Positions 3,407-25,256 of a stretch of 42,064 bases of DNA are shown here, in pieces. The DNA comes from a virus (taxonomy: Duplodnaviria; Caudoviricetes). Under the pieces are notes generated by a model. The model was not told where the DNA came from. It did not search any database and was given only the letters and a program-made list of their open reading frames with translations. Numbering within the stretch: the stretch's first letter is position 1; the number at the start of each line of letters is the position of its first letter. The DNA lies in the IMG/VR virus record IMGVR_UViG_3300036987_000522, positions 1 through 42,064 of that record. The stretch is one strand, 5' to 3'. The position numbers and the translations under genes are program-made.

Positions 3407-3808
3407 TTATGGGATTGCTGCTTCGTACTTCCTGGCTTGCTCTTCAGGAAGATCTCCATTGATTTGAATGACCACATTCCCTTTGGTAAACACCCACGAA
3501 AAAAACAATGCACTGGACTTGCCAAGTTCGGTGTAATAGTTTGTCAGCAAGTCGCGGTCTTCGGTGTTGTCACAGATGAAGATTCTGCCGCCATTATCGG
3601 GTCCGAGTGAAGGGACAAAAAACCGTGTGCCTGTGCAAACGTAAGGCGCAGCGCCATAGTCTTCCTTGGTCATGGCACGAGTGTTTTCTGCTTCGAGGCC
3701 TGCATCTTTGAATGATTGCACAACATCGTCACCAGTGACTTGAGCACTACAGGAAGTGAGGAAGATAGCCAATAGTAAGATCATAGAAATTTTAGATTTG
3801 ATATTCAT
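3407..3808 (-). CDS. Lipoprotein, lysogenic cargo
   Basis: Signal peptide with lipobox LTSC; AAAGGA RBS. Confidence 0.7.
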   Translation of the reverse strand: MNIKSKISMILLLAIFLTSCSAQVTGDDVVQSFKDAGLEAENTRAMTKEDYGAAPYVCTGTRFFVPSLGPDNGGRIFICDNTEDRDLLTNYYTELGKSSALFFSWVFTKGNVVIQINGDLPEEQARKYEAAIP

Positions 3809-13319: not shown

Positions 13320-14081
13320 ATGACAACGAACAAAGCAGAAAAGAAACCAAACAAGCGGATCAACATCCACACCACAATCATGTGGGGCATGGCGCTGGTG
13401 CAGGCTGTCAGGTATGCGCGGGCATTTGCCATCGCAGAGATTGGACGCCATGATCTGACAGGCATGCCAAACGTGGACGAATTCCTAGCTTATGCATCCC
13501 TGATCACAGGGCTGCTGATGGGCTTTGGCATGTCCCTAGGGCTGGCATTTGTTGCAAGCCAACTGCGCGGCTTGAAGGGCAAGAAGGAAACCCAGTGGGT
13601 GACTGGACTTTTCATGGTGATGCTCATCGTCTCGCCAGTGGTGCTGACGCCAATGGTAAAGGGCACGATGGCAGAATGGCTGGCCGACATCCTGTATTAC
13701 CCAATCTTGCAATGGCTGTGGGCGGTGGGTGTGGTGGTGCTTCCCGACGCTCTGATCGCTGCGGTCGGTTTCATGGATCGCTCAGCGACGCTGCCAGCGA
13801 AGTCCAGCGACGCTCCAGCGACAGCCAGCGACGCTGGGAGCGACGTTCAGCGACAGTCAGCGACGCTCAAAAGTCGCTCAGCGAAGAAACCAGCGACTGT
13901 CAGCGACGCTCAAGCGAAAATTTACAGGTGTGAATGCGGGCAGACCTTTGCCGACAGGTTCAAGTACAGCGGTCACACACGGACATGCGCAAAGCGCAAA
14001 GAGATCATGGCAGGTAAGAATTTGATCGCGGTGGAGCTTCCAGCGACGCCAGCGAAGATTGAGCGAGGCGGTGAGCGATGA
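13320..14081 (+). CDS. Multi-TM membrane protein with repeat-encoded linker and C-terminal Zn finger (Spd-like)
   Basis: AAAGGAG RBS; ~4 TM; CECGQTF..GHTRTC. Confidence 0.7.
   Translation: MTTNKAEKKPNKRINIHTTIMWGMALVQAVRYARAFAIAEIGRHDLTGMPNVDEFLAYASLITGLLMGFGMSLGLAFVASQLRGLKGKKETQWVTGLFMVMLIVSPVVLTPMVKGTMAEWLADILYYPILQWLWAVGVVVLPDALIAAVGFMDRSATLPAKSSDAPATASDAGSDVQRQSATLKSRSAKKPATVSDAQAKIYRCECGQTFADRFKYSGHTRTCAKRKEIMAGKNLIAVELPATPAKIERGGER
13783..13917 (+). repeat. Array of 12 phased (C)AGCGA(C) direct repeats
   Basis: AGCGA at 13784, 13796, 13806, 13817, 13827, 13839, 13849, 13859, 13880, 13892, 13902, 13913. Confidence 0.85.
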
Positions 14082-15160
14082 CAACTTTACTACCCACACA
14101 AGACTTGGCACTTATGCGAGCGCTGGCACGCACAGCAGGTGTGCTGCTGGTGGCAGTGCGGATCAATCAACTGCACCCAGGGCGAGCGATCTCGGACTAT
14201 GAGATCGCCGACATCCTCGAAGTGGACAAGCGGACCGTGCAGAAGCAGCTGCGGTCACTGTCTGCGGCAGGCCTGATGCTCGAGCAGCGTCCAGGCAAGT
14301 ACGTGGTAACAGCGGCAGGGCAGAACACACTGCTCAGCTGGTCAGATCAGCCACAGATTGCTGAGACGGCGAGTCTTTCTATAGAGGAGCAGCCAGTTTA
14401 TAGTGACGCACAAAATGTGCATGCACAAAATGTGCAGTTCATGATTGATGATGATGACATTAAGAACTTAAATCCTGATTCATCATCCTCAATCAATCCG
14501 GAGAGCACAAAATGTGCGCAAATTTTGGACGCAACGCAAGTTTTGTTTGGGGAGTCGGTTTCAACAGCCTGTCTCTCCGAGATTGCTCACCCAAAGCCAA
14601 CATGGGTGCTCGCCTGGGTCAACAAGGCCTGGCGCGATCGCGAGCGGCTGACAAACCCACACGGGTTGATTTATCGCCGAGTGATATCCTGCGAGCGCCC
14701 GCCTTTGTGGCTGGAGAAGGACCCAACTGCAGGGCTGCCAGAGGAGTTCCTCGAGGCAATCGGGATGCTCGAGAAGGTCTGCCCACGCTGCCACGAGAAG
14801 TTCACAATTCTGGCTGAACACACGGCGCATGTCGAAAAGTGCCTCATGACCCACTTCGAGGAGCCAGAGGAGGAATTGGCAGCTGGTCCCGATGAGACGG
14901 TCACAGAGCAGGTTCGCCAATCATGGCAAACGGTGCTTGATCAGCTGCGGAACGAGATGCCAAAGGCACAGTTTCAGACTTGGGTCGAAGATGCTCACCC
15001 TGTGCATTTTGGTGGCACGGTGCTGCAGGTAGGAGTCCGCAACGGGTATGCAAAGCACTGGTTGACTACCAACCTGAGCGAGCAGGCAGGACGCCTGGTG
15101 AGTAAAACCTTCAATGCGACGGTCTGCTTGGAGTGGATCGTTTCTGCGGAAACGGAGTAG
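14078..15160 (+). CDS. Phage replication initiator (N-terminal HTH, C-terminal DnaA-N-like domain)
   Basis: SDYEIADILEVDKRTVQKQLRSL wHTH; WQTVLDQL..FQTWV..NGYAKHWL DnaA_N-like; internal iterons. Confidence 0.75.
   Translation: MTTLLPTQDLALMRALARTAGVLLVAVRINQLHPGRAISDYEIADILEVDKRTVQKQLRSLSAAGLMLEQRPGKYVVTAAGQNTLLSWSDQPQIAETASLSIEEQPVYSDAQNVHAQNVQFMIDDDDIKNLNPDSSSSINPESTKCAQILDATQVLFGESVSTACLSEIAHPKPTWVLAWVNKAWRDRERLTNPHGLIYRRVISCERPPLWLEKDPTAGLPEEFLEAIGMLEKVCPRCHEKFTILAEHTAHVEKCLMTHFEEPEEELAAGPDETVTEQVRQSWQTVLDQLRNEMPKAQFQTWVEDAHPVHFGGTVLQVGVRNGYAKHWLTTNLSEQAGRLVSKTFNATVCLEWIVSAETE
14408..14517. repeat. Putative phage replication origin (iterons plus AT-rich inverted repeat)
   Basis: GCACAAAATGTGC at 14408, 14423 and 14505, flanking a GATTGATGATGATGA / TCATCATCCTCAATC inverted repeat. 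Confidence 0.7.
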
Positions 15161-15162
15161 GC

Positions 15163-15507
15163 ATGCCAGCAGCTGATCGCCGTTTCTTTCTCTGCACTGG
15201 TCAGTGCGTCGAATACAAAGACCTTTACAAGTTCCCCCAGAGTCACATTCTTGGTGAGCTGCGGTATGTCACGGATGAGGGCCGACGGGTGACGGCTCTG
15301 GCGCTGTACGAGATCCCAGTCAGCGCGACTGAAGTCCCACCGCTCAAGCCGAGCATCATCGTCCACATCGTAGGGGATGCTCGGATGATCAGGTGCAGGT
15401 TTGCCGACTGCACTAAGTCGCAGCGGTGGGAGTTGGGTAGGGCGGCTTTCCTGGCGCTGATGGACCGCATGGGTTATCAGGGAAAGCTCTTGGAAAGTGA
15501 AAACTAG
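15163..15507 (+). CDS. Hypothetical Cys-containing protein, last early gene (candidate late regulator)
   Basis: GGAG RBS; CTGQC..CRFADC; position only. Confidence 0.5.
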   Translation: MPAADRRFFLCTGQCVEYKDLYKFPQSHILGELRYVTDEGRRVTALALYEIPVSATEVPPLKPSIIVHIVGDARMIRCRFADCTKSQRWELGRAAFLALMDRMGYQGKLLESEN

Positions 15508-15637
15508 TCACCCATAAATGGCACGACAAATTAATGAAATTTTAATGTGGCAATCTTATTTGTTGATTGGTTATAAAATAGGCTCTTTTTCTGTTAAAAT
15601 ACATAATCTATTGTTTTCTGAAACTCTAGGAGGAATA

Positions 15638-16711
15638 ATGTCATTTACTGACAGAATAAAACTTATAGAAGAACTAGAAAAAGTTCGAGACTCCCGTGTG
15701 CTTTGCTATATCTTAGGTGATCGAGAATCTTTTCCCCCTGGTTTTCCCCCTGGATATTCACTTCAGCTTAGTAATGAGCCCGCATTTCAGCTACAAGAAT
15801 TAGTCCGTTCTATCGGTAAAATAAAAAAACTTGATCTTTTCCTCTATACTCGAGGAGGCTCTACAGATGCGGTTTGGCCGTTAATTAATTTATTACGAGA
15901 ATATTGTGAACACTTAACTGTAATTGTTCCGTTCAGAGCCCATAGTGCTGGTACTTTAATTTGCTTGGGGGCAGATGAAATTATTATGACTGAAGCTGCT
16001 GAGTTAAGCCCAATTGACCCCACAACTGGGAATCAATTTAACCCATCCGATCCAGCTAATCCCCAAAGTAAGTTTGGAATTAGTGTAGAGGATGTAGCTG
16101 CCTACTTTGAACTAAGCGCTAAAAGAGCGGACATTGCTGCAGAAAACTTGAAGCTTGAAGTTTTTAAAGAGTTAACTAATAAGGTGCATCCTTTGGCGCT
16201 TGGTAATGTTCAGCGAGTGTATAACCAAATACGATTTTTAGCTCGCAACCTTCTTTCCCTTCATCTTGACGTAAATGGTCACAAAGAAAGAATTGACAGC
16301 ATTATAAAAAGTTTGACAGAAGAATTTTATTCTCATGTCCATTCGATTAATCGAAAAGAAGCAGCATCGTTAATGGGTGATTGGGTACGTTTACCTAACA
16401 AAGAAGAAGAAACCCTAATTGCAAATCTCTTTGGTCAGTATGTGAGTGATTTAGAATTAAATACTAAATTTCAAACGCCAGAATATATGGGCGACAATCC
16501 AGAGTGTGCTTTAAATGTTATTGGCGGTTTTCTGGAAACTAAAGAGAAATCCTATAAGTATGAAACCTCGATGAATATTTTTCAACGTTCAATTCTTCCT
16601 CAAGGTTTTCAAGTCCAGGTTCCCCCTGGATCTATCATGCCCTTGCTTCCTGGGTTTCCAAGATCCTTTGATTCTTCCATTCTTCACATGGCATGGATGC
16701 CAAATGAGTAA
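15638..16711 (+). CDS. SDH-family ClpP-fold serine protease (S49-like)
   Basis: LYTRGG, VPFRAHSAGTLICLGADEI (Ser), LSPIDP (Asp), YSH (His); AGGAGG RBS; AT-rich. Confidence 0.85.
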   Translation: MSFTDRIKLIEELEKVRDSRVLCYILGDRESFPPGFPPGYSLQLSNEPAFQLQELVRSIGKIKKLDLFLYTRGGSTDAVWPLINLLREYCEHLTVIVPFRAHSAGTLICLGADEIIMTEAAELSPIDPTTGNQFNPSDPANPQSKFGISVEDVAAYFELSAKRADIAAENLKLEVFKELTNKVHPLALGNVQRVYNQIRFLARNLLSLHLDVNGHKERIDSIIKSLTEEFYSHVHSINRKEAASLMGDWVRLPNKEEETLIANLFGQYVSDLELNTKFQTPEYMGDNPECALNVIGGFLETKEKSYKYETSMNIFQRSILPQGFQVQVPPGSIMPLLPGFPRSFDSSILHMAWMPNE

Positions 16712-16722
16712 TGAGGTAAGTT

Positions 16723-16989
16723 ATGTCTGATATAAGAAAATACACTACTTCTGTGCATAACAGTTTTATATCTATGCAAATATCCTATTCGACAGCAGAT
16801 GTCGAAAAAAGCTTGTTTACAGGAACAGCGTCTGTTGCCTTAGAAAATCCATCGCCAAGTGGAAACATCGAACTTCTTGTTGTTGATGGAGATGTATTTA
16901 TTCTCCAAGAATCAAGCCCGGAAGATGCAGTTCCACTAACGCCTGGTGCGGGTATTACTGGATTGGTTGCTATTGATAAGCAAGAATAA
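16723..16989 (+). CDS. Small acidic hypothetical protein (candidate antitoxin/substrate)
   Basis: GAGG RBS; lies between protease and PIN. Confidence 0.6.
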   Translation: MSDIRKYTTSVHNSFISMQISYSTADVEKSLFTGTASVALENPSPSGNIELLVVDGDVFILQESSPEDAVPLTPGAGITGLVAIDKQE

Positions 16990-17004
16990 GTTACAAATGT
17001 TTTC

Positions 17005-17469
17005 ATGCATCGAAACCAATTCAGTCAACAACCATCATTTGGACGGAGTATATATTCCAAGGCTGTCATGCTTGATACAGGTGCCTTGATCGCTTTGTCT
17101 AACTCGAGAGATAAATATCATCTTCCAGCCAAAAATAGTTTAGACCGCTTGGTTAGCGATCGATTTCCGCTATATATTACAATTCCAACTATTTATGAAA
17201 CTCAAAGGAGACTACTCCTTGATTTAGGCATTAAGGCATCAAGTAAATTCTTAACTAATATATTTGATGGTTCAATTAATATAGAGAAAACAAGTACTGA
17301 TGATGATATGGCGGCAAAAACCTTAACAGAAAAATATTCCTACATGCCACTTACCTTGACTGATGCGGTTAATATGACAGTTATGATTCGACTGGGAATT
17401 GCAAAGATTTTTTCTTTTGATGAGCATTTTATCCGAGTGGGTTTTCTGATAGTGCCTCCTGTAAGATAA
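17005..17469 (+). CDS. PIN-domain (VapC-like) ribonuclease
   Basis: MLDTGALIAL, TIYET, LTLTDA, IFSFDEHF acidic tetrad. Confidence 0.85.
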   Translation: MHRNQFSQQPSFGRSIYSKAVMLDTGALIALSNSRDKYHLPAKNSLDRLVSDRFPLYITIPTIYETQRRLLLDLGIKASSKFLTNIFDGSINIEKTSTDDDMAAKTLTEKYSYMPLTLTDAVNMTVMIRLGIAKIFSFDEHFIRVGFLIVPPVR

Positions 17470-17531
17470 GAATAACTCATCATTTATTTTATTAATAAAA
17501 TCGATGTATAATTAAATTTGAAAGGAGAAAC

Positions 17532-17630
17532 AACAACTAAATAAACTTTTGCAGTCCTGGTCATGTATCGGGACACACATTCGGAAATGATGCGCCCGAA
17601 GACTCAATCGAGTCTTCGGGCGTTTTTGTT
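17532..17630 (+). promoter_or_regulatory. Late-operon structured leader with intrinsic terminator, copy A
   Basis: TATAAT at 17507; hairpin GTCCTGGT..ATCGGGAC; terminator CGCCCGAAGACTC-AATC-GAGTCTTCGGGCG-TTTTT; repeated at ~25082-25180. Confidence 0.75.
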
Positions 17631-17660
17631 TCCATAGTCAAATTATAAGGAGATGTTCGT

Positions 17661-18570: not shown

Positions 18571-19053
18571 ATGCAAGGACGGAAGCCAAAACCCACTGCG
18601 CTCAAGATGCTGGCTGGCAATCCTGGGAAGCGTGCGATCAATCACGCCGAACCAAAGCCAAGAGTCGTCATGCCAAAGCCACCGGATCATTTGAGCGATG
18701 CTGAAAAAGAAAAATGGAAGCTGATCGTTCGCGAGCTGCATCCACTTGGATTGGTCACAACGATCGACAAGGATGCGCTCGCCATGTATTGCACAATCTA
18801 TGTGCGTTGGATCAAGGCAGAACGGATGGTTCGCGACAAAGGCGAGATCATCAAAACTGCGGCAGGGAACATCATTCAAAATCCCTACCTCTCAATCGCA
18901 AATCGAGCGCTTGACCAACTCAACAAACTGGGTGCCGAGTTCGGCATGACACCATCCAGCAGATCACGCGTCAAAGCGGACATGCTGACCCCAGATCAGG
19001 AATTGGAGCGGATGCTATTTGGCCCGCGAGTGACAGTATCAAATGACAGATGA
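18571..19053 (+). CDS. Terminase small subunit, P27 family (copy 1)
   Basis: GRKPKPT..GNPGKR; QNP; EFGMTPSSRSR. Confidence 0.88.
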   Translation: MQGRKPKPTALKMLAGNPGKRAINHAEPKPRVVMPKPPDHLSDAEKEKWKLIVRELHPLGLVTTIDKDALAMYCTIYVRWIKAERMVRDKGEIIKTAAGNIIQNPYLSIANRALDQLNKLGAEFGMTPSSRSRVKADMLTPDQELERMLFGPRVTVSNDR

Positions 19054-20380
19054 ACTTACTTACATTGCTGAGGGGCTAAGAGTCCTGGCAGTTCCAATCG
19101 ACGAACTGCACGTGGACCCTGCCAACGCGCGAACTGGTCACGCACTGGAACGCATCGCGGCATCACTCAAAGCATACGGTCAGCGTAAGCCTATCATCGC
19201 GAACCGCCTGCAGAACGGAAAGATTGAGGCAGGCAATGGCACATGGCAGGCAGCCAAGCATCTGGGCTGGAGTCATATCGCCGTGGTCTTTGTCGAGGAT
19301 GACCCGGCAACTGCGGCAGCCTTTGGCATTGCGGACAACCGCCTGAGCGATCTTAGCACTTGGGACTTGGATGCACTCGGAGCACTGATGCCAACCGTTG
19401 AGGATTTGGTAACAGGCTTCACAGAGAGTGAGATCCGCGACGTGCTCGGTGAACGTGGCGGGGGGTTGCTGGTGGACCCAGGTCCGCAGGATGAGGACGA
19501 TAAAAAACTGAAAGAGTTGCAGGAAAAGTGGGGAACTGCACTCGGTCAGACTTGGGCAGTGGGCAGGCACATCCTCCACTGTGGAGATTCCACGCAACTG
19601 GATATCGAAAGCCTCGGCTGGATGGGTGCCGCAGCACTGACCGTCACGTCACCGCCTTATTGGGTGGGCAAGGAATACGAACGCGAAAAGAGCGAAGCGG
19701 AGATCGATGAATTCATCGGTCGCGTGGCAGCCCTGATGGCAAAGGTCACCCGCGTGGACGAGTCTCGCATCGTGATCAATACCAGCACAGGCTTCACAAC
19801 TGCCTTCGATAAAAAGAAAAAGCGGCAGGTGCTGCTGCTGATCGATAAGTGGATGAACGCGCTATACCCACTCGGCTGGAACTTGCGCCATGTGCGTCAC
19901 TGGCTGAAGGAAGGCCAACTTGCGTCTGTATCTCCAAAGACTGACCTGATTGACCAGCATAGTGAGTTCTTCGGCACGTTCGAGCATGATGATGGCGAAG
20001 AGATCCACTTCGACGACGTGCTCAATGAGCAGGATGTGAACCTGCTCGAAACCTTTTATAGCCGCCACGGCAAGCAGCGCGGACAGGAACGTACTGGTCA
20101 GAAGTGGGCGCTGCGTTCGTATTGGGATGACATCAAAGGCACTGCCGGTGCGAATGGTCATATTGCAGCCTTCCCGTTGGAGATACCAGCGCGGCACATC
20201 CTTCTCTACACCAAGCCAGGCGAGACGGTCTTCGAACCGTTCAGCGGATCCGGTACGACGCTGATTGCCTGCGAAGTGCTGAACCGTGAATGCATCGGAG
20301 TTGAGCTCGACCCTGCTTATTTGGCTGCCAGTCTGGAACGCTGGCATGTAATGACTGGCAACATGCCAGAGAGGATTTAA
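19043..20380 (+). CDS. ParB-N-terminal domain fused to beta-class amino DNA methyltransferase (SPPY type)
   Basis: ParB-like DPANAR..AGNGT..ADNR; TSPPY; H.AAFP; EPFSGSGTT. Confidence 0.85.
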   Translation: MTDELTYIAEGLRVLAVPIDELHVDPANARTGHALERIAASLKAYGQRKPIIANRLQNGKIEAGNGTWQAAKHLGWSHIAVVFVEDDPATAAAFGIADNRLSDLSTWDLDALGALMPTVEDLVTGFTESEIRDVLGERGGGLLVDPGPQDEDDKKLKELQEKWGTALGQTWAVGRHILHCGDSTQLDIESLGWMGAAALTVTSPPYWVGKEYEREKSEAEIDEFIGRVAALMAKVTRVDESRIVINTSTGFTTAFDKKKKRQVLLLIDKWMNALYPLGWNLRHVRHWLKEGQLASVSPKTDLIDQHSEFFGTFEHDDGEEIHFDDVLNEQDVNLLETFYSRHGKQRGQERTGQKWALRSYWDDIKGTAGANGHIAAFPLEIPARHILLYTKPGETVFEPFSGSGTTLIACEVLNRECIGVELDPAYLAASLERWHVMTGNMPERI

Positions 20381-20384
20381 GGAT

Positions 20385-20594
20385 ATGGCTACGAGACAGG
20401 AAGAATTAGAAAAAAAGGTAAGAGAAAGCGGAAGCCTTGAAGAACGTTTACTAGAGTGCCGTCGCAGGATTTCTGTGATGTGCAAAGAAGGACGTCCGCC
20501 TAAGATGACCATCCCTGTTCAATGGGATGATGATGACTTTTTTATCAGCATTACGTTGCAAGATGCTATTGCTGCTTATCAGAACACTCAGTGA
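20385..20594 (+). CDS. Small hypothetical protein
   Basis: AAGGA RBS; exactly fills the gap between the two MTases. Confidence 0.55.
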   Translation: MATRQEELEKKVRESGSLEERLLECRRRISVMCKEGRPPKMTIPVQWDDDDFFISITLQDAIAAYQNTQ

Positions 20595-20595
20595 G

Positions 20596-21831
20596 ATGAC
20601 AGATTTACCCTACATCACCGAATCCCTGCGACCGCTTGCCGTACCGATCGCTGACCTGCACGAAGATCCTGCCAATGCCCGCATTGGTCATGACGTGCCA
20701 GGGATCAAAGCATCCCTACAAGCCTATGGACAGCGTAAGCCCATCGTCGTCAATCGCCTGCAGAACAACAAGATCGAAGCAGGCAATGGCACCTATCGTG
20801 CCGCCAAGGAACTGGGCTGGAGTCATATCGCTGTGGTCTTCGTCGAAGATGACCCCGCCACCGCAGCTGGCTATGGCATCGCCGATAACCGCCTGGGCGA
20901 CCTCAGTGAATGGGATGTGGACGTGCTGCGCGAGATCACCCAAACCACTGGCGACCTCTTCACCGGTTTCACCCCTGCAGACTTGGACGACCTGGTGGGC
21001 GTTTCTACAGCAACAGGGGCACCCCAGGCAACCGTAGCGGACCCTGGAGGGCAACCCGACAAAGCCGAAGAGCTGCAAGCCAAGTGGCAAGTGCAGCCCG
21101 GGCAGATCTACCAACTGGGACCGCATCGCATCATGTGCGGCGATTCCACGCAACACACCGACGTCGAACGGCTGATGGCAGGCGAGCTCGCGCACCTCAT
21201 CTGGACCGATGCGCCGTGGAACGTGAACTATGGCGGTAATGATCACCCTACCTACAAAAAGCGCACGATCAACAATGACAACCTCGGCGAAAAATTCATC
21301 ATCTTTGTGGAACTCTTCGTCACGCAACTCTGGCGTTTCAGCGTGCCAGGTGCCGTGGTGTATGCAGTCATGGGTGGTGAAGAGTGGCCGGTGATCGACA
21401 GCGAGCTGCGCAAGATCGGCTTTCACTGGTCGAGCACCATCGTGTGGGTCAAAGATCAAATGGTCTTGTCGCGCAAAGATTATCACGCGCAATACGAACC
21501 CATCTGGTACGGCTGGAAGAGTGACGCACCGCGAGTCTGCGAGGTCCCCGATCGCAAACAGTCGGACACGTGGTTCATCGATCGACCGCGCAAGAGTGAA
21601 GAGCATCCAACAATGAAGCCGCTCGAGCTGGTCGAGCGTTCGCTTCTGAATTCGTCCCATCCTGGAGATATCGTCCTTGACCTTTTCTCAGGCTCTGGCA
21701 CCACGCTGGCAGCGTGTGAACGGACCGGCAGAGTCTGCCGGGCAATGGACAACGATCCAAAATATGTAGCTGTGGGGCTGGAACGCTGGCACATCATGAC
21801 CGGTCAGCAACCAGTATTGGAGGATTTGTGA
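20596..21831 (+). CDS. ParB-N-terminal domain fused to beta-class amino DNA methyltransferase (DAPW variant of DPPY)
   Basis: Same ParB-like N-terminus; WTDAPWNV; HPTMKP; DLFSGSGTT. Confidence 0.88.
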   Translation: MTDLPYITESLRPLAVPIADLHEDPANARIGHDVPGIKASLQAYGQRKPIVVNRLQNNKIEAGNGTYRAAKELGWSHIAVVFVEDDPATAAGYGIADNRLGDLSEWDVDVLREITQTTGDLFTGFTPADLDDLVGVSTATGAPQATVADPGGQPDKAEELQAKWQVQPGQIYQLGPHRIMCGDSTQHTDVERLMAGELAHLIWTDAPWNVNYGGNDHPTYKKRTINNDNLGEKFIIFVELFVTQLWRFSVPGAVVYAVMGGEEWPVIDSELRKIGFHWSSTIVWVKDQMVLSRKDYHAQYEPIWYGWKSDAPRVCEVPDRKQSDTWFIDRPRKSEEHPTMKPLELVERSLLNSSHPGDIVLDLFSGSGTTLAACERTGRVCRAMDNDPKYVAVGLERWHIMTGQQPVLEDL

Positions 21832-22314: not shown

Positions 22315-24027
22315 ATGGCAAAGCGAAGGAAGGAGGTGCTGCATCCAGCAGAACAATATGCTCAGGACGTGATCAGTGGCAAGATCACTGCATGCAAATG
22401 GGTGCAGTTAGCTTGTGAACGACACATTCATGACCTTGAGCATGCACATGAGCGTGGGTTTTATTTTGACCCGGGAGCAGGGCAATACGTTATTGATTTT
22501 ATTGGCATGTTGCGGCACTCCAAAGGTAAGTGGGGGCGTGGAGTCGGTGAATTTATCGTTCTTGAGCCGTGGCAGCAATTTATCATTTGGGTGGGCTTTG
22601 GGTGGAAACGTGCTGATGGTATGCGGCGCTTCCGCACAATCTATGATGAGGTTGCCCGTAAAAATGGGAAGAGCACCAAGGCAGCTGGACTGGGTATATA
22701 TCTTGGCTTTGCAGATGGTGAGCCAGGTGCTGAAGTGTATAGCGCAGCCACCAAACGCGATCAGGCGCGTATCGTACACAAGGAAGCCATCCGCATGGTG
22801 CGCAAGAACCCAGGGTTGCGGAAGTACATCAAGATTTATAAAGACAACCTCAACCTTGAACAGACTGCTTCGAAGTATGAACCGCTGGGTGCAGACTCGG
22901 ACAGCACTGATGGCTTGAACATTCATGGCGTCATCGCCGATGAGCTGCACGCTTGGAAGAGCCGTGAAATGTACGATGTGCTCGAAACTGCCACCGGCTC
23001 CCGCGAACAGCCCATGATCATCTCCATCACCACGGCTGGCATGGATCGCCTGAGTGTGTGCTACGAGAAACACGAATACACCCGCAAGGTGCTCGAAGGC
23101 TGGAAGGACGGCTCCTTCGAAGACGATACATGGTTCGGCATCATCTATACCATAGACGAAGGCGACGATTGGCGTGACGAAAATGTGTGGATCAAAGCCA
23201 ACCCGAACCTAGGAGTCTCGAAATACATCGAAGACATGCGCATGAAAGCCAAGCGTTCAGAGCACATGCCTGCAGCTCTCGCTGGCTTCTTGCGCCGTGA
23301 ACTTAACGTGTGGGTGCAGGGCGAGTTCAAATGGATGCCAATGGATCGCTGGCGAAAGTGTAGCGGCGATGTGCCTGCGCTCAAACTTCCGAAACGGCTG
23401 GAAAATGCAACTGCCTATGGCGGACTGGACTTGTCGAGTACATCTGACTTGACTGCTTTTGTAATGGCGTTTCCAGATGATGATGGGAACTTTGATATCG
23501 TGTGCCGCTTCTGGATACCTGAAGATCAAATGGAGATCCGCACACGGGATTATGGCGTGCAGTACCGCCTATGGGTTGAGCAGGGATACATTGAGACTAC
23601 GCCAGGGAATTCCATTGACCCTGATTACATTCTCGATCAGGTCGAGCAAGATGCAGACATCTTCGATATTGACCAAGTCGCATTTGACCGTTGGGGGGCA
23701 GCCCGTGTGGTTACGACCTTAGAGAATAAAGGACTGACAATGGTGCAGTTTGGTCAGGGATACGCCAGCATGAACCCACCAATGAAGGAACTGGAGCGCC
23801 TGGTTTTATCAGGCAAGATCCGCCACGGTAACAACCCAGTATTAACCTGGATGGCAGATAACCTCGTGGCACGGATGGACCCATCTGGCAACATCAAACC
23901 AGATAAGGAAAAGAGTCGCGAGAAAATAGATGGCATGGTGGCGCTGATCATGGCACTCGATCTGGCACTGAGGCACCCCGAGAAGAAGAGTATCTATGAA
24001 AAACGAGGCATTCGAAGGCTTGGATAA
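22315..24027 (+). CDS. Terminase large subunit
   Basis: LEPWQ, ARKNGKS, DELH, ITTAG, GGLDLS, KIDGMVA motifs. Confidence 0.95.
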   Translation: MAKRRKEVLHPAEQYAQDVISGKITACKWVQLACERHIHDLEHAHERGFYFDPGAGQYVIDFIGMLRHSKGKWGRGVGEFIVLEPWQQFIIWVGFGWKRADGMRRFRTIYDEVARKNGKSTKAAGLGIYLGFADGEPGAEVYSAATKRDQARIVHKEAIRMVRKNPGLRKYIKIYKDNLNLEQTASKYEPLGADSDSTDGLNIHGVIADELHAWKSREMYDVLETATGSREQPMIISITTAGMDRLSVCYEKHEYTRKVLEGWKDGSFEDDTWFGIIYTIDEGDDWRDENVWIKANPNLGVSKYIEDMRMKAKRSEHMPAALAGFLRRELNVWVQGEFKWMPMDRWRKCSGDVPALKLPKRLENATAYGGLDLSSTSDLTAFVMAFPDDDGNFDIVCRFWIPEDQMEIRTRDYGVQYRLWVEQGYIETTPGNSIDPDYILDQVEQDADIFDIDQVAFDRWGAARVVTTLENKGLTMVQFGQGYASMNPPMKELERLVLSGKIRHGNNPVLTWMADNLVARMDPSGNIKPDKEKSREKIDGMVALIMALDLALRHPEKKSIYEKRGIRRLG

Positions 24028-24029
24028 TC

Positions 24030-24059
24030 CTTGACTTCCCCGGGCTTCGGCGGCGTAAT
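24030..24059 (+). promoter_or_regulatory. Promoter-like motif CTTGACTT-NNNC-GGGCT-NNN-GCGGCGTAAT, copy 2
   Basis: Matches 13268-13297; followed by AAAAGGAGA RBS as in copy 1. Confidence 0.6.
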
Positions 24060-24082
24060 TGGGGTATCAAAAGGAGATTAAC

Positions 24083-24304
24083 ATGAATACAAAAACAGCA
24101 CTTGAAGCATACGAAGAAAAACAGGCAGAGATCGAAAAACTGCTGAAGCAGATCAAAGAAGGACTGCTGACGCACGATCGCGGATGCACCCCACGACATA
24201 ACTGGGGGCATGTAGGTGACTTAAACACCATAGTAGAAACGCTGACCGACATCAAGGATCGACTACACAAAACTGGCGAATATAAGTTGGAAAAGATATG
24301 TTAA
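24083..24304 (+). CDS. Small helical phage protein (NWGHVGDL motif)
   Basis: AAAGGAG RBS; own promoter motif. Confidence 0.65.
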   Translation: MNTKTALEAYEEKQAEIEKLLKQIKEGLLTHDRGCTPRHNWGHVGDLNTIVETLTDIKDRLHKTGEYKLEKIC

Positions 24305-24435
24305 CTCGATACAACACTGAGCTTATATATCTTGCTAAATAAGAGAGAGAAAAAGTTCTATTTACTTTGACACATTTCTTAGGTAAAATAATTAAAACTT
24401 ACGGCTTATCATTTAAGTGTGCAAGAGGAGGTATT

Positions 24436-24843
24436 ATGACAACCTTTTTGATTGTAATAATAATAATTGTGTTCATTTATTTGTATATCGGGTTAACAAA
24501 CCAAAAGGAAGAATCTGAACGTAATAAAAGAGCGAAAGAGCAGTATGAAATAATTCAGAGGGAAAAAGAGAGAGAATTTCGCACTTGCTCAAATTGTCGT
24601 AAGCAATCCGGTTTCAGTTTCGTTAGAGAGGAATTGGTTAGTAAGGAACCATTTCATTTTGTCTATCTGGAATCTCCTAAAAAAGGCCCCCCTTATATAA
24701 AGAGGGATCCGTCGGATATTAGTGCGTCTGATTATGACCACGTTGAGGTAGAAGTTAATGGAGTTAGAGCTACATATAGAAAGTACTATAAATGCATCGA
24801 GTGTGGTTTTGAAAAATTCGTAGAAAGAACTGAAGAAGAATAG
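24436..24843 (+). CDS. AT-rich moron: N-terminal TM plus Zn-ribbon protein
   Basis: GAGGAGG RBS; TTTACT-17-TAAAAT at 24361-24389; CSNC..CIEC. Confidence 0.65.
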   Translation: MTTFLIVIIIIVFIYLYIGLTNQKEESERNKRAKEQYEIIQREKEREFRTCSNCRKQSGFSFVREELVSKEPFHFVYLESPKKGPPYIKRDPSDISASDYDHVEVEVNGVRATYRKYYKCIECGFEKFVERTEEE

Positions 24844-24941
24844 ATTCTTATAGAACGACGGCCTTCTAGGCAGTAAAGATAGTACGGAAGAAGCTGAAGC
24901 CCAAGTCGGTTTTTAATACAGGATAGTTTTGAAAATAAACC

Positions 24942-24970
24942 TTGACAAAAAAGAACATTTGTTCTAAAAT
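24942..24970 (+). promoter_or_regulatory. Sigma70 promoter with LexA (SOS) box in the spacer
   Basis: TTGACA-17-TAAAAT; AGAACATTTGTTCT at 24952-24965. Confidence 0.75.
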
Positions 24971-24976
24971 AATTAT

Positions 24977-25022
24977 AGATGACCGCTAGGGTGCCCCCCT
25001 CACCCTAGCGGTCATCGCTTTT
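24977..25022 (+). ncRNA. Putative SOS-inducible small hairpin RNA
   Basis: 16-bp perfect stem GATGACCGCTAGGGTG / CACCCTAGCGGTCATC, loop CCCCCCT, then GCTTTT; starts right at the expected +1. Confidence 0.5.
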
Positions 25023-25042: not shown

Positions 25043-25180
25043 TTGACAATTCCCTCCCCGGGGCTATAATTAGAACAGTTGAACAGTTAAATACTTCAGG
25101 CAGTCCTGGTTGATCCGGGACATTGATTCGGAGTGATGCCGCCCGAAGACTCATTTGAGTCTTCGGGCGGCTTTTTTGTT
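25043..25180 (+). promoter_or_regulatory. Consensus promoter plus late-operon structured leader/terminator, copy B
   Basis: TTGACA-16-TATAAT; hairpin GTCCTGG..CCGGGAC; terminator GCCGCCCGAAGACTCA..TGAGTCTTCGGGCGGC-TTTTTT. Confidence 0.78.
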
Positions 25181-25256
25181 ACCTATGCACAAATATACCC
25201 AACCAGAAAACCCCATCACCACCACGCTCCTGATTGATTAGGGGGAGGATATTTGC

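Follow-up and report, generated by a model that had tools for sequence, protein, structure and literature searches.

A ClpP-fold protease, a small acidic protein and a PIN-domain RNase form an apparently undescribed three-gene cassette in a provirus and across bacterial phyla

INTRODUCTION

Why should a phage carry, packed into one AT-rich insert, the genes for a protease, a small acidic protein and a PIN-domain RNase? Removal of the antitoxin is a central question for toxin-antitoxin (TA) systems, and the known routes run through host Lon or ClpXP or through a chaperone, as in TAC systems. A locus in the IMG/VR record IMGVR_UViG_3300036987_000522 may offer another. The original prediction, made from the letters of this DNA, was of a self-contained system in which a dedicated protease senses infection and cleaves either the small protein or the N-terminal extension of the RNase. 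Here, we analyzed the whole stretch of 42,064 nucleotides (the window) and the relatives of its three genes. The tripartite architecture is real, conserved and apparently undescribed, and from it we infer a functional role.

RESULTS

Genomic setting of the cassette

The window comprises a provirus record of 42 kb (88% complete), with genes for an integrase, an HTH repressor, ParB, FtsK, terminase, portal, an S78 prohead protease and capsid proteins. Metagenome runs containing this stretch come from groundwater and coal. A flanking glycosyltransferase has at most 79% identity to genes from the class of an Anaerolineales genome, in a search confined to that class, and the provirus therefore likely belongs to an Anaerolineae host.

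The cassette (Table 1) sits between replication-region genes (an HTH/DnaA_N gene at 14078-15160) and the HNH/terminase late region. Its GC content is 36.9% over 15520-17510, compared to 51.9% in the remainder of the window and 56.4% and 53.9% in the two 2-kb flanks, and its three genes lie on the + strand with gaps of only 11 and 15 nt. Thus, the AT-rich insert between early and late regions and the tight, co-oriented packing, both described in the original prediction, are borne out, as is its placement among moron-type insertions. In a blastn comparison with a related phage record (L204), window position 15441 corresponds to position 3647 and window position 17505 to position 3691, with flanks 88 to 90% identical, so the relative has 43 bp in place of the window's ~2,060 bp. 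The empty site also occurs in a contig of groundwater run X1 (joint 15432>17505), which may be the source sample. Because both the relative and the X1 contig carry the empty site, the cassette is a moron-type insertion. Near-identical pieces of it were found in a second study (X2). A promoter scan gave no excess over shuffled sequence (6 versus 7.2).

Table 1. Features of the cassette and its surroundings in the window
Feature	Position	Strand	Basis and remarks
Inserted AT-rich segment, about 2.06 kb	15442..17504	.	blastn to L204; contig joint in run X1
Shine-Dalgarno AGGAGG of protease gene	15628..15633	+	Sequence
SDH-family ClpP-fold serine protease, 357 aa	15638..16711	+	Pfam; AlphaFold2 fold match; conserved S103/D127/H233
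Small acidic protein, 88 aa, pI 4.2; unannotated family, putative antitoxin/protease target	16723..16989	+	Sequence; family alignment
PIN-domain RNase (predicted), 154 aa, pI 9.4; VapC20/VapC26-like	17005..17469	+	PF01850; start codon uncertain, no clear RBS
Terminator-like hairpin and T tail	17592..17633	+	3' of cassette; phage backbone, present in empty-site relative too

Several neighboring features of the phage backbone are also variable or repeated. The equivalent place in a further related phage, after a 124-aa gene, is taken by an integrase-like gene (L206:6380-7366), which suggests that the insertion position is a variable site. An intergenic element is present in two copies (~82% over 87 bp), at 17505-17650 and at about 25060-25200. 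Within each copy, TATAAT is accompanied by a conserved leader and by a strong terminator-like hairpin; each lies directly 3' of an AT-rich insert and 5' of a late gene block; the copies are possibly late promoter or antitermination sites that mark moron hotspots. The second AT-rich insert (24000-25000, 38% GC), between terminase and portal, contains an ORF of 81 aa and a gene for a membrane-anchored Cys-x-x-Cys protein of 158 aa. Two tandem paralogous genes, ParB-like/DNA-methylase-like by eye (19043-21831; 445 and 434 aa), lie between the genes for the small and large terminase subunits; the relative L204 apparently has one such gene.

The three proteins

The protease scores 56.8 bits against Pfam PF01972 (SDH_protease), above the gathering threshold of 31.3. 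Its AlphaFold2 model (pLDDT 94) most closely matches the ClpP fold (Z 12.0, rmsd 4.1, 174 aligned) and also matches SppA, consistent with a ClpP/crotonase fold with Ser, Asp and His in order. S103, D127 and H233 are invariant in 118/118 aligned proteases and in all 132 sequences of the protease tree; the intact Ser-Asp-His protease of the original prediction is thereby upheld, and we assign these residues as the putative catalytic triad from the family name and their conservation. A 397-aa version starting at 15518 was rejected as a mere mechanical upstream extension of the ORF, given homologues of ~357 to 360 aa and the ribosome binding site at 15628. Against the NCBIfam equivalog NF047768, the protein scores 69.3 bits, below the curated cut-off of 250, and it therefore represents a distinct subfamily. 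It has an extra C-terminal beta-meander with a Pro-rich loop (about residues 289 to 355) that the fold matches barely cover and for which all scores in an ESM Atlas search were <0.9. This domain is full-length in 53/53 loci with the same small gene and PIN type as the window (PIN-A) and shorter in the clade associated with two other PIN types (PIN-B and PIN-C), and it is a candidate gate or recognition surface. No sensor domain is recognizable in the protease, nor is there a segment of transmembrane strength (maximum 19-residue hydropathy, 1.34).

The PIN protein scores 46.7 bits against Pfam PF01850 (cut-off, 23.6). D24, E65 and D120 are invariant in 43/43 sequences and D139 is present in at least 90% of the 43, so the acidic tetrad is intact, as had been claimed. 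The best PDB sequence matches, both weak, are VapC20 (E 0.004) and VapC26 (E 0.29), toxins that PMC5175351 describes as cleaving 23S rRNA at its sarcin-ricin loop. This weak likeness is the sole reason for naming that loop as the possible RNA target. A family-specific N-terminal extension, G-R-S-I-Y-S-K-A (residues 13 to 20), occurs in 40/49 cassette PINs versus 1/26 ordinary PINs and could form a second contact with the small protein. In 401 genomes of the Acidobacteriota phylum, neither the protease nor the small gene lies within 1.5 kb of the closest ordinary PINs (0/29 loci). Instead, their upstream genes encode RHH, AbrB or HTH domains in 18/28 cases and are canonical VapBs, several of which end in P-L-T-K-D-H-P-I-F-R-L-V-G. 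The cassette PINs also stand apart by score: their full-length members reach at least 143 bits against a PIN model whose training set included them, versus at most 120 bits for ordinary PINs.

The small protein combines a Q-x-S-[YF]-S-T-A-D/E module (residues 19 to 32), a beta-hairpin with VVDGD (50 to 61), a P-P linker and a P-L-T...L-V tail (71 to 87). Clustering at 50% identity divides its family into 405 clusters, 119 of which have E<=1e-10; the median pairwise identity is 21%. No Pfam family was found in any of 48 members, and thus no RHH, AbrB, HTH or Phd domain; the structure model has no DNA-binding fold, but its pTM is 0.32. The original remark that the middle gene lacks an obvious VapB DNA-binding fold agrees with the Pfam result. 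The motif [ST]-T-[AG]-[DE] is present in 129/148 members examined. T24 is conserved in 98% and F32 in 97%; behind them come a linker of variable sequence and a hairpin, with G56 and P66 each conserved in 91%.

Longer members of this family terminate in P-L-T-x-x-S-G-L-F-R-I-V-G, and hhalign places residues 71 to 87 weakly onto the C-terminal segment of the VapBs that accompany the ordinary PINs (E 0.055 over 16 columns). A VapB-tail PSSM gives z>2 for 38% of 84 long members, 9% of 64 short members and 2% of 80 background ORFs. The tail lacks the distal H-D-x-Y-L part of ordinary VapBs, and short members are mostly without it, yet precede intact PINs (e.g., L030, L036 and L043). Our reading is that the small protein may be an antitoxin whose DNA-binding domain gave way to a new module. 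A fold search returned nothing at Z>=2, an uninformative outcome for a low-confidence, extended model, and an ESM Atlas search gave only scores <0.9; no longer or fused forms were found, which is weak evidence. Predictions of a complex of protease, PIN and small protein, with the small protein as the partner, scored 0.00, 0.72 and 0.00 in three runs, with controls not folded, and carry no weight for or against an interaction.

Recurrence of the three-gene unit

For protease homologues, 164 loci were collected: from genomes the best 80 of 181 confirmed matches, from viruses 4/4 matches and from metagenomes the best 80 of at least 495 matches. De-duplication left 148 proteases, and removal of 26 with <700 nt of downstream sequence left 122 informative loci. 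A PIN gene lies 3' of the protease in 26/28 loci with protease identity of at least 45% and at least 700 nt downstream, near-duplicates included. The original prediction had staked itself on the genes occurring together elsewhere, and they do: the same small gene and PIN follow the protease in 43/122 informative loci, across about nine phyla. The record titles of the PIN-A loci name Chloroflexota, Acidobacteria, Deltaproteobacteria, Myxococcales, Gemmatimonadetes, Omnitrophota, Dormiibacterota, Acidimicrobiaceae, Gammaproteobacteria and Gracilibacteria. Within phyla the unit is rare (2/401 and 1/401 genomes). A search with the small gene gave 3 matches in 802 genomes, all at loci already in the protease-based set (L171 is the same as L014), and neither the protease nor the PIN, as a single-protein query, gave a match in scans of viral contigs.

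Pairwise identities correlate over 41 loci, at 0.79 for protease and PIN, 0.46 for protease and small protein and 0.40 for the third pair, and 0/499 permutations reached the first two values. These mirror-tree correlations show that the genes are inherited together, not that their products bind. In our judgment, functional coupling of the three genes is very probable. Cassette GC is lower than that of the flanks in 20/21 loci across homologous cassettes. Mobile or defense markers occur within 5 kb in 15/37 loci (restriction-modification or methylase, 7; TIR, 1; integrase, transposase or relaxase, 7), a survey of 123/153 ORFs that had no control; the other 22/37 have no such marker among the ORFs scanned. 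In one metagenome contig (L127:841-1898), the protease is frameshifted near residue 190, possibly through an assembly error, and the small gene and PIN are intact, which fits a protease that is not needed for neutralization. Two further loci (L047:6355-6852 and L094:4880-5746) have transposase-like ORFs, judged by eye, in the PIN's place, directly 3' of the small gene.

Other partners of related proteases

A toxin of another family stands behind a related protease in 25/122 loci, with a small gene between the two in 24/25. By Pfam matches above cut-off, or clustering with such a match, these toxins include 10 PIN-B (3 of the 10 loci were scanned, all above the cut-off), 6 PemK/MazF, 2 Fic and 1 ParE; 4 PIN-C, 1 PIN-D and 1 HEPN-like protein were assigned by eye or fall below the cut-off. 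The labels of all locus classes other than PIN-A were assigned by us. The 83 loci examined yielded 117 ORFs 5' of the protease, many of them likely spurious and none a toxin of these types. In a midpoint-rooted protease tree of 132 sequences (without duplicates, sequences <270 aa and 25 archaeal loci), a Fic locus (L007) and a MazF locus (L051) nest inside the PIN-A clade with support of 0.96, and two MazF loci (L058 and L076) lie among PIN-B.

In L051, the N-terminal module of the small protein is joined to a different tail ahead of MazF; therefore, the module goes with the protease and not with the PIN. None of 16 scanned second genes of the other toxin loci encodes a DNA-binding or antitoxin Pfam domain, and their C termini appear antitoxin-like in pattern. 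The motif [ST][ST][AG] occurs within the first 55 residues in 14/24 of these second genes (4.5 expected) and is absent in 10/24; among independent second genes the count is 6/13 versus 2.1 expected (p 0.006), for a motif chosen post hoc. Because of the L051 module, the nested toxin swaps and this enrichment, the small protein is the predicted target of the protease. The recurrence of related proteases with unrelated toxins, with a small gene between where found, likewise favors it over the PIN N terminus.

Other loci lack a recognizable toxin. The protease is alone in 18/122, all in an archaeal clade where its position on the chromosome is fixed. In 7/122 it is followed by a small gene without a toxin and in 10/122 by a gene that is DUF6941-type or unannotated, together with one for a membrane protein; the remaining 19/122 are of other kinds. 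In the archaeal solo-protease clade, with 32 loci counting the L017-L042 group and its metagenome relatives, the protease adjoins a helicase gene, a setting that suggests a domesticated role. In the DUF6941-type loci (L050, L054, L150, L156, L061, L074, L153, L165, L067 and L157), the first partner has 200 to 250 aa and the membrane protein an S/T/G-rich N terminus; the membrane proteins are possible protease-activated effectors. An SDH protease with 35% identity also stands alone in an Escherichia coli phage-plasmid (NZ_CP081794; L166:3998-4993), where it is encoded on the opposite strand at a classic moron site, between antiterminator Q and holin.

The 54/122 loci in which the protease is alone or has unrelated partners, together with the fact that only 2 PIN-A loci besides that of the window derive from the viral collection, would fit two further accounts: that the genes are coupled for stress, dormancy or addiction and not for defense against phages, or that the protease is a separate mobile gene that travels with TA pairs. 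Taken together, we regard these as unlikely. The fixed gene order, the tight spacing, the mirror-tree correlations, the loss of the DNA-binding domain in every partner scanned and the absence of such toxins among the upstream ORFs all speak against a passenger.

Comparison with known systems

The cassette shares with VapBC pairs of the VapC20/VapC26 group (PF01850) a PIN RNase with its acidic tetrad and a small acidic gene directly 5', the product of which has a tail that may be distantly VapB-like. It differs in that the partner has no RHH, AbrB or HTH domain, the operon is headed by a dedicated protease and the PIN has an N-terminal extension. TAC systems (HigBAC, CmdTAC and MqsRAC), for which an anti-phage role is reported in 10.1101/2024.02.24.581848, have, by the same account, a dedicated third gene for protein handling, exchangeable toxins, an added disordered antitoxin element and a prophage location, all features in common with the cassette. 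However, the third TAC gene encodes a SecB-like chaperone, whereas that of the cassette encodes a PF01972 ClpP-fold protease and comes first in the operon; the TAC antitoxin has a C-terminal ChAD extension, whereas the conserved added module of the small protein is N-terminal or central; and TACs depend on ClpXP or other routes of the host, whereas the cassette encodes its own protease.

Protease-effector defense modules (MBL, alpha/beta-hydrolase, Pepco, EACC1, CalpL-CalpT, Csx29-Csx30 and gasdermin) also have a co-encoded protease predicted to free a latent toxic activity. As far as their descriptions in 10.1101/2025.11.14.688446 and PMC12799240 extend, their proteases are of the trypsin, caspase, subtilisin or Lon type and mostly fused to sensors, in contrast to the ClpP fold found here. 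The cassette resembles TACs and these modules in its presumed way of working but belongs to neither group, nor to canonical VapBC. The terms "Clp," "S49" and "antitoxin" have no mention in the former text, nor do "Clp" and "antitoxin" in the latter. With SDH-type ClpP-like proteinases (PF01972; NF047768; PHROG 11747), the cassette protease shares the fold and the Ser-Asp-His order, to which it adds the C-terminal beta-meander; the literature searched describes no function for these proteinases.

PIN-based defense is documented for DS-3 and DS-5 in 10.1101/2025.01.08.631726, the main text of which contains neither "protease" nor "Clp." The accessible part of PMC11980606 describes no comparable system, and PMC2605481 has no mention of DUF114 or SDH. 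We found no literature linking SDH/PF01972/DUF114 proteases to TA pairs, although supplementary candidate tables (e.g., that of DefensePredictor) may contain the system. PADLOC-DB 2.0.0 (2023 library) has no match for the three cassette proteins at E<=0.1, in line with the first impression that no named system is involved, and 118 related proteases gave just 5 stray weak matches to unrelated models.

DISCUSSION

We infer an antitoxin role for the small protein, a protease-substrate relation, a trigger and a role in defense, and tentatively favor, as our leading reading, a type II TA module gated by a dedicated protease and likely acting by abortive infection. In this scheme, the small protein would hold the VapC-type PIN RNase inactive until the protease is switched on, likely by phage infection. 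The triggered protease would then cut or degrade the small protein by way of its conserved S-T-A module, and the released RNase would halt translation, leading to abortive infection or dormancy. Because of the moron position, the mobile contexts and the analogy to known systems, we lean slightly toward an anti-phage function.

Control could also run in the reverse direction, as in TACs. The protease would then constitutively mature or shelter the antitoxin (e.g., by trimming a destabilizing N-terminal extension), and the toxin would be freed when a phage protein blocks the protease or draws it away. A constant accessory gene, exchangeable TA pairs and a poorly structured antitoxin extension are the layout described for TACs in 10.1101/2024.02.24.581848. 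Moreover, the S/T motif of the PIN-B and PIN-C loci is N-terminal to an intact antitoxin-like tail, so that a single cut would spare the tail, and the protease has no recognizable sensor. We nonetheless consider this arrangement unlikely, as the locus with the frameshifted protease retains both downstream genes (in one contig), the gene order is unlike that of TACs and the accessory gene encodes a conserved enzyme.

More improbable, in our view, is a nuclease zymogen outside the classical TA scheme, in which the small protein is an inhibitor, adaptor or pro-peptide of the protease and a latent PIN is activated by cleavage or binding at its N-terminal extension. The near-restriction of that extension to cassette PINs fits such a zymogen, as do the seven loci with a protease and small gene but no toxin and the short small proteins without a VapB-like tail. 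There is precedent in the protease-activated nuclease zymogens documented in 10.1101/2025.11.14.688446 and PMC12799240 and in DS-5, which 10.1101/2025.01.08.631726 presents as a PIN defense system and not a TA pair. However, the extension amounts to only ~8 conserved residues, and the same protease family precedes extension-free MazF, Fic, ParE and other PINs, with a middle gene that has an antitoxin-like tail. A role in phage head maturation was rejected, as an S78 prohead protease is encoded elsewhere in the phage (27308-27985) and the empty-site relative does without the cassette gene.

Beyond the window, the protease-gated TA reading extends, more speculatively, to a cross-phylum class of tripartite toxin-antitoxin-protease systems. 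One ATP-independent ClpP-fold protease family would repeatedly have captured VapC, MazF, ParE, Fic/Doc and HEPN-like toxins, the DNA-binding domain of the antitoxin would have been replaced by a portable S/T-S/T-A protease-recognition tag, and the protease would serve as both infection sensor and switch. The analysis also brings to light an unannotated small-protein family of 405 clusters. If the proposal is true, a co-encoded protease that serves several unrelated toxin families would represent a new activation logic, SDH-family proteases would for the first time have a function, and the cassette would provide a degron and protease that could be grafted as a pair.
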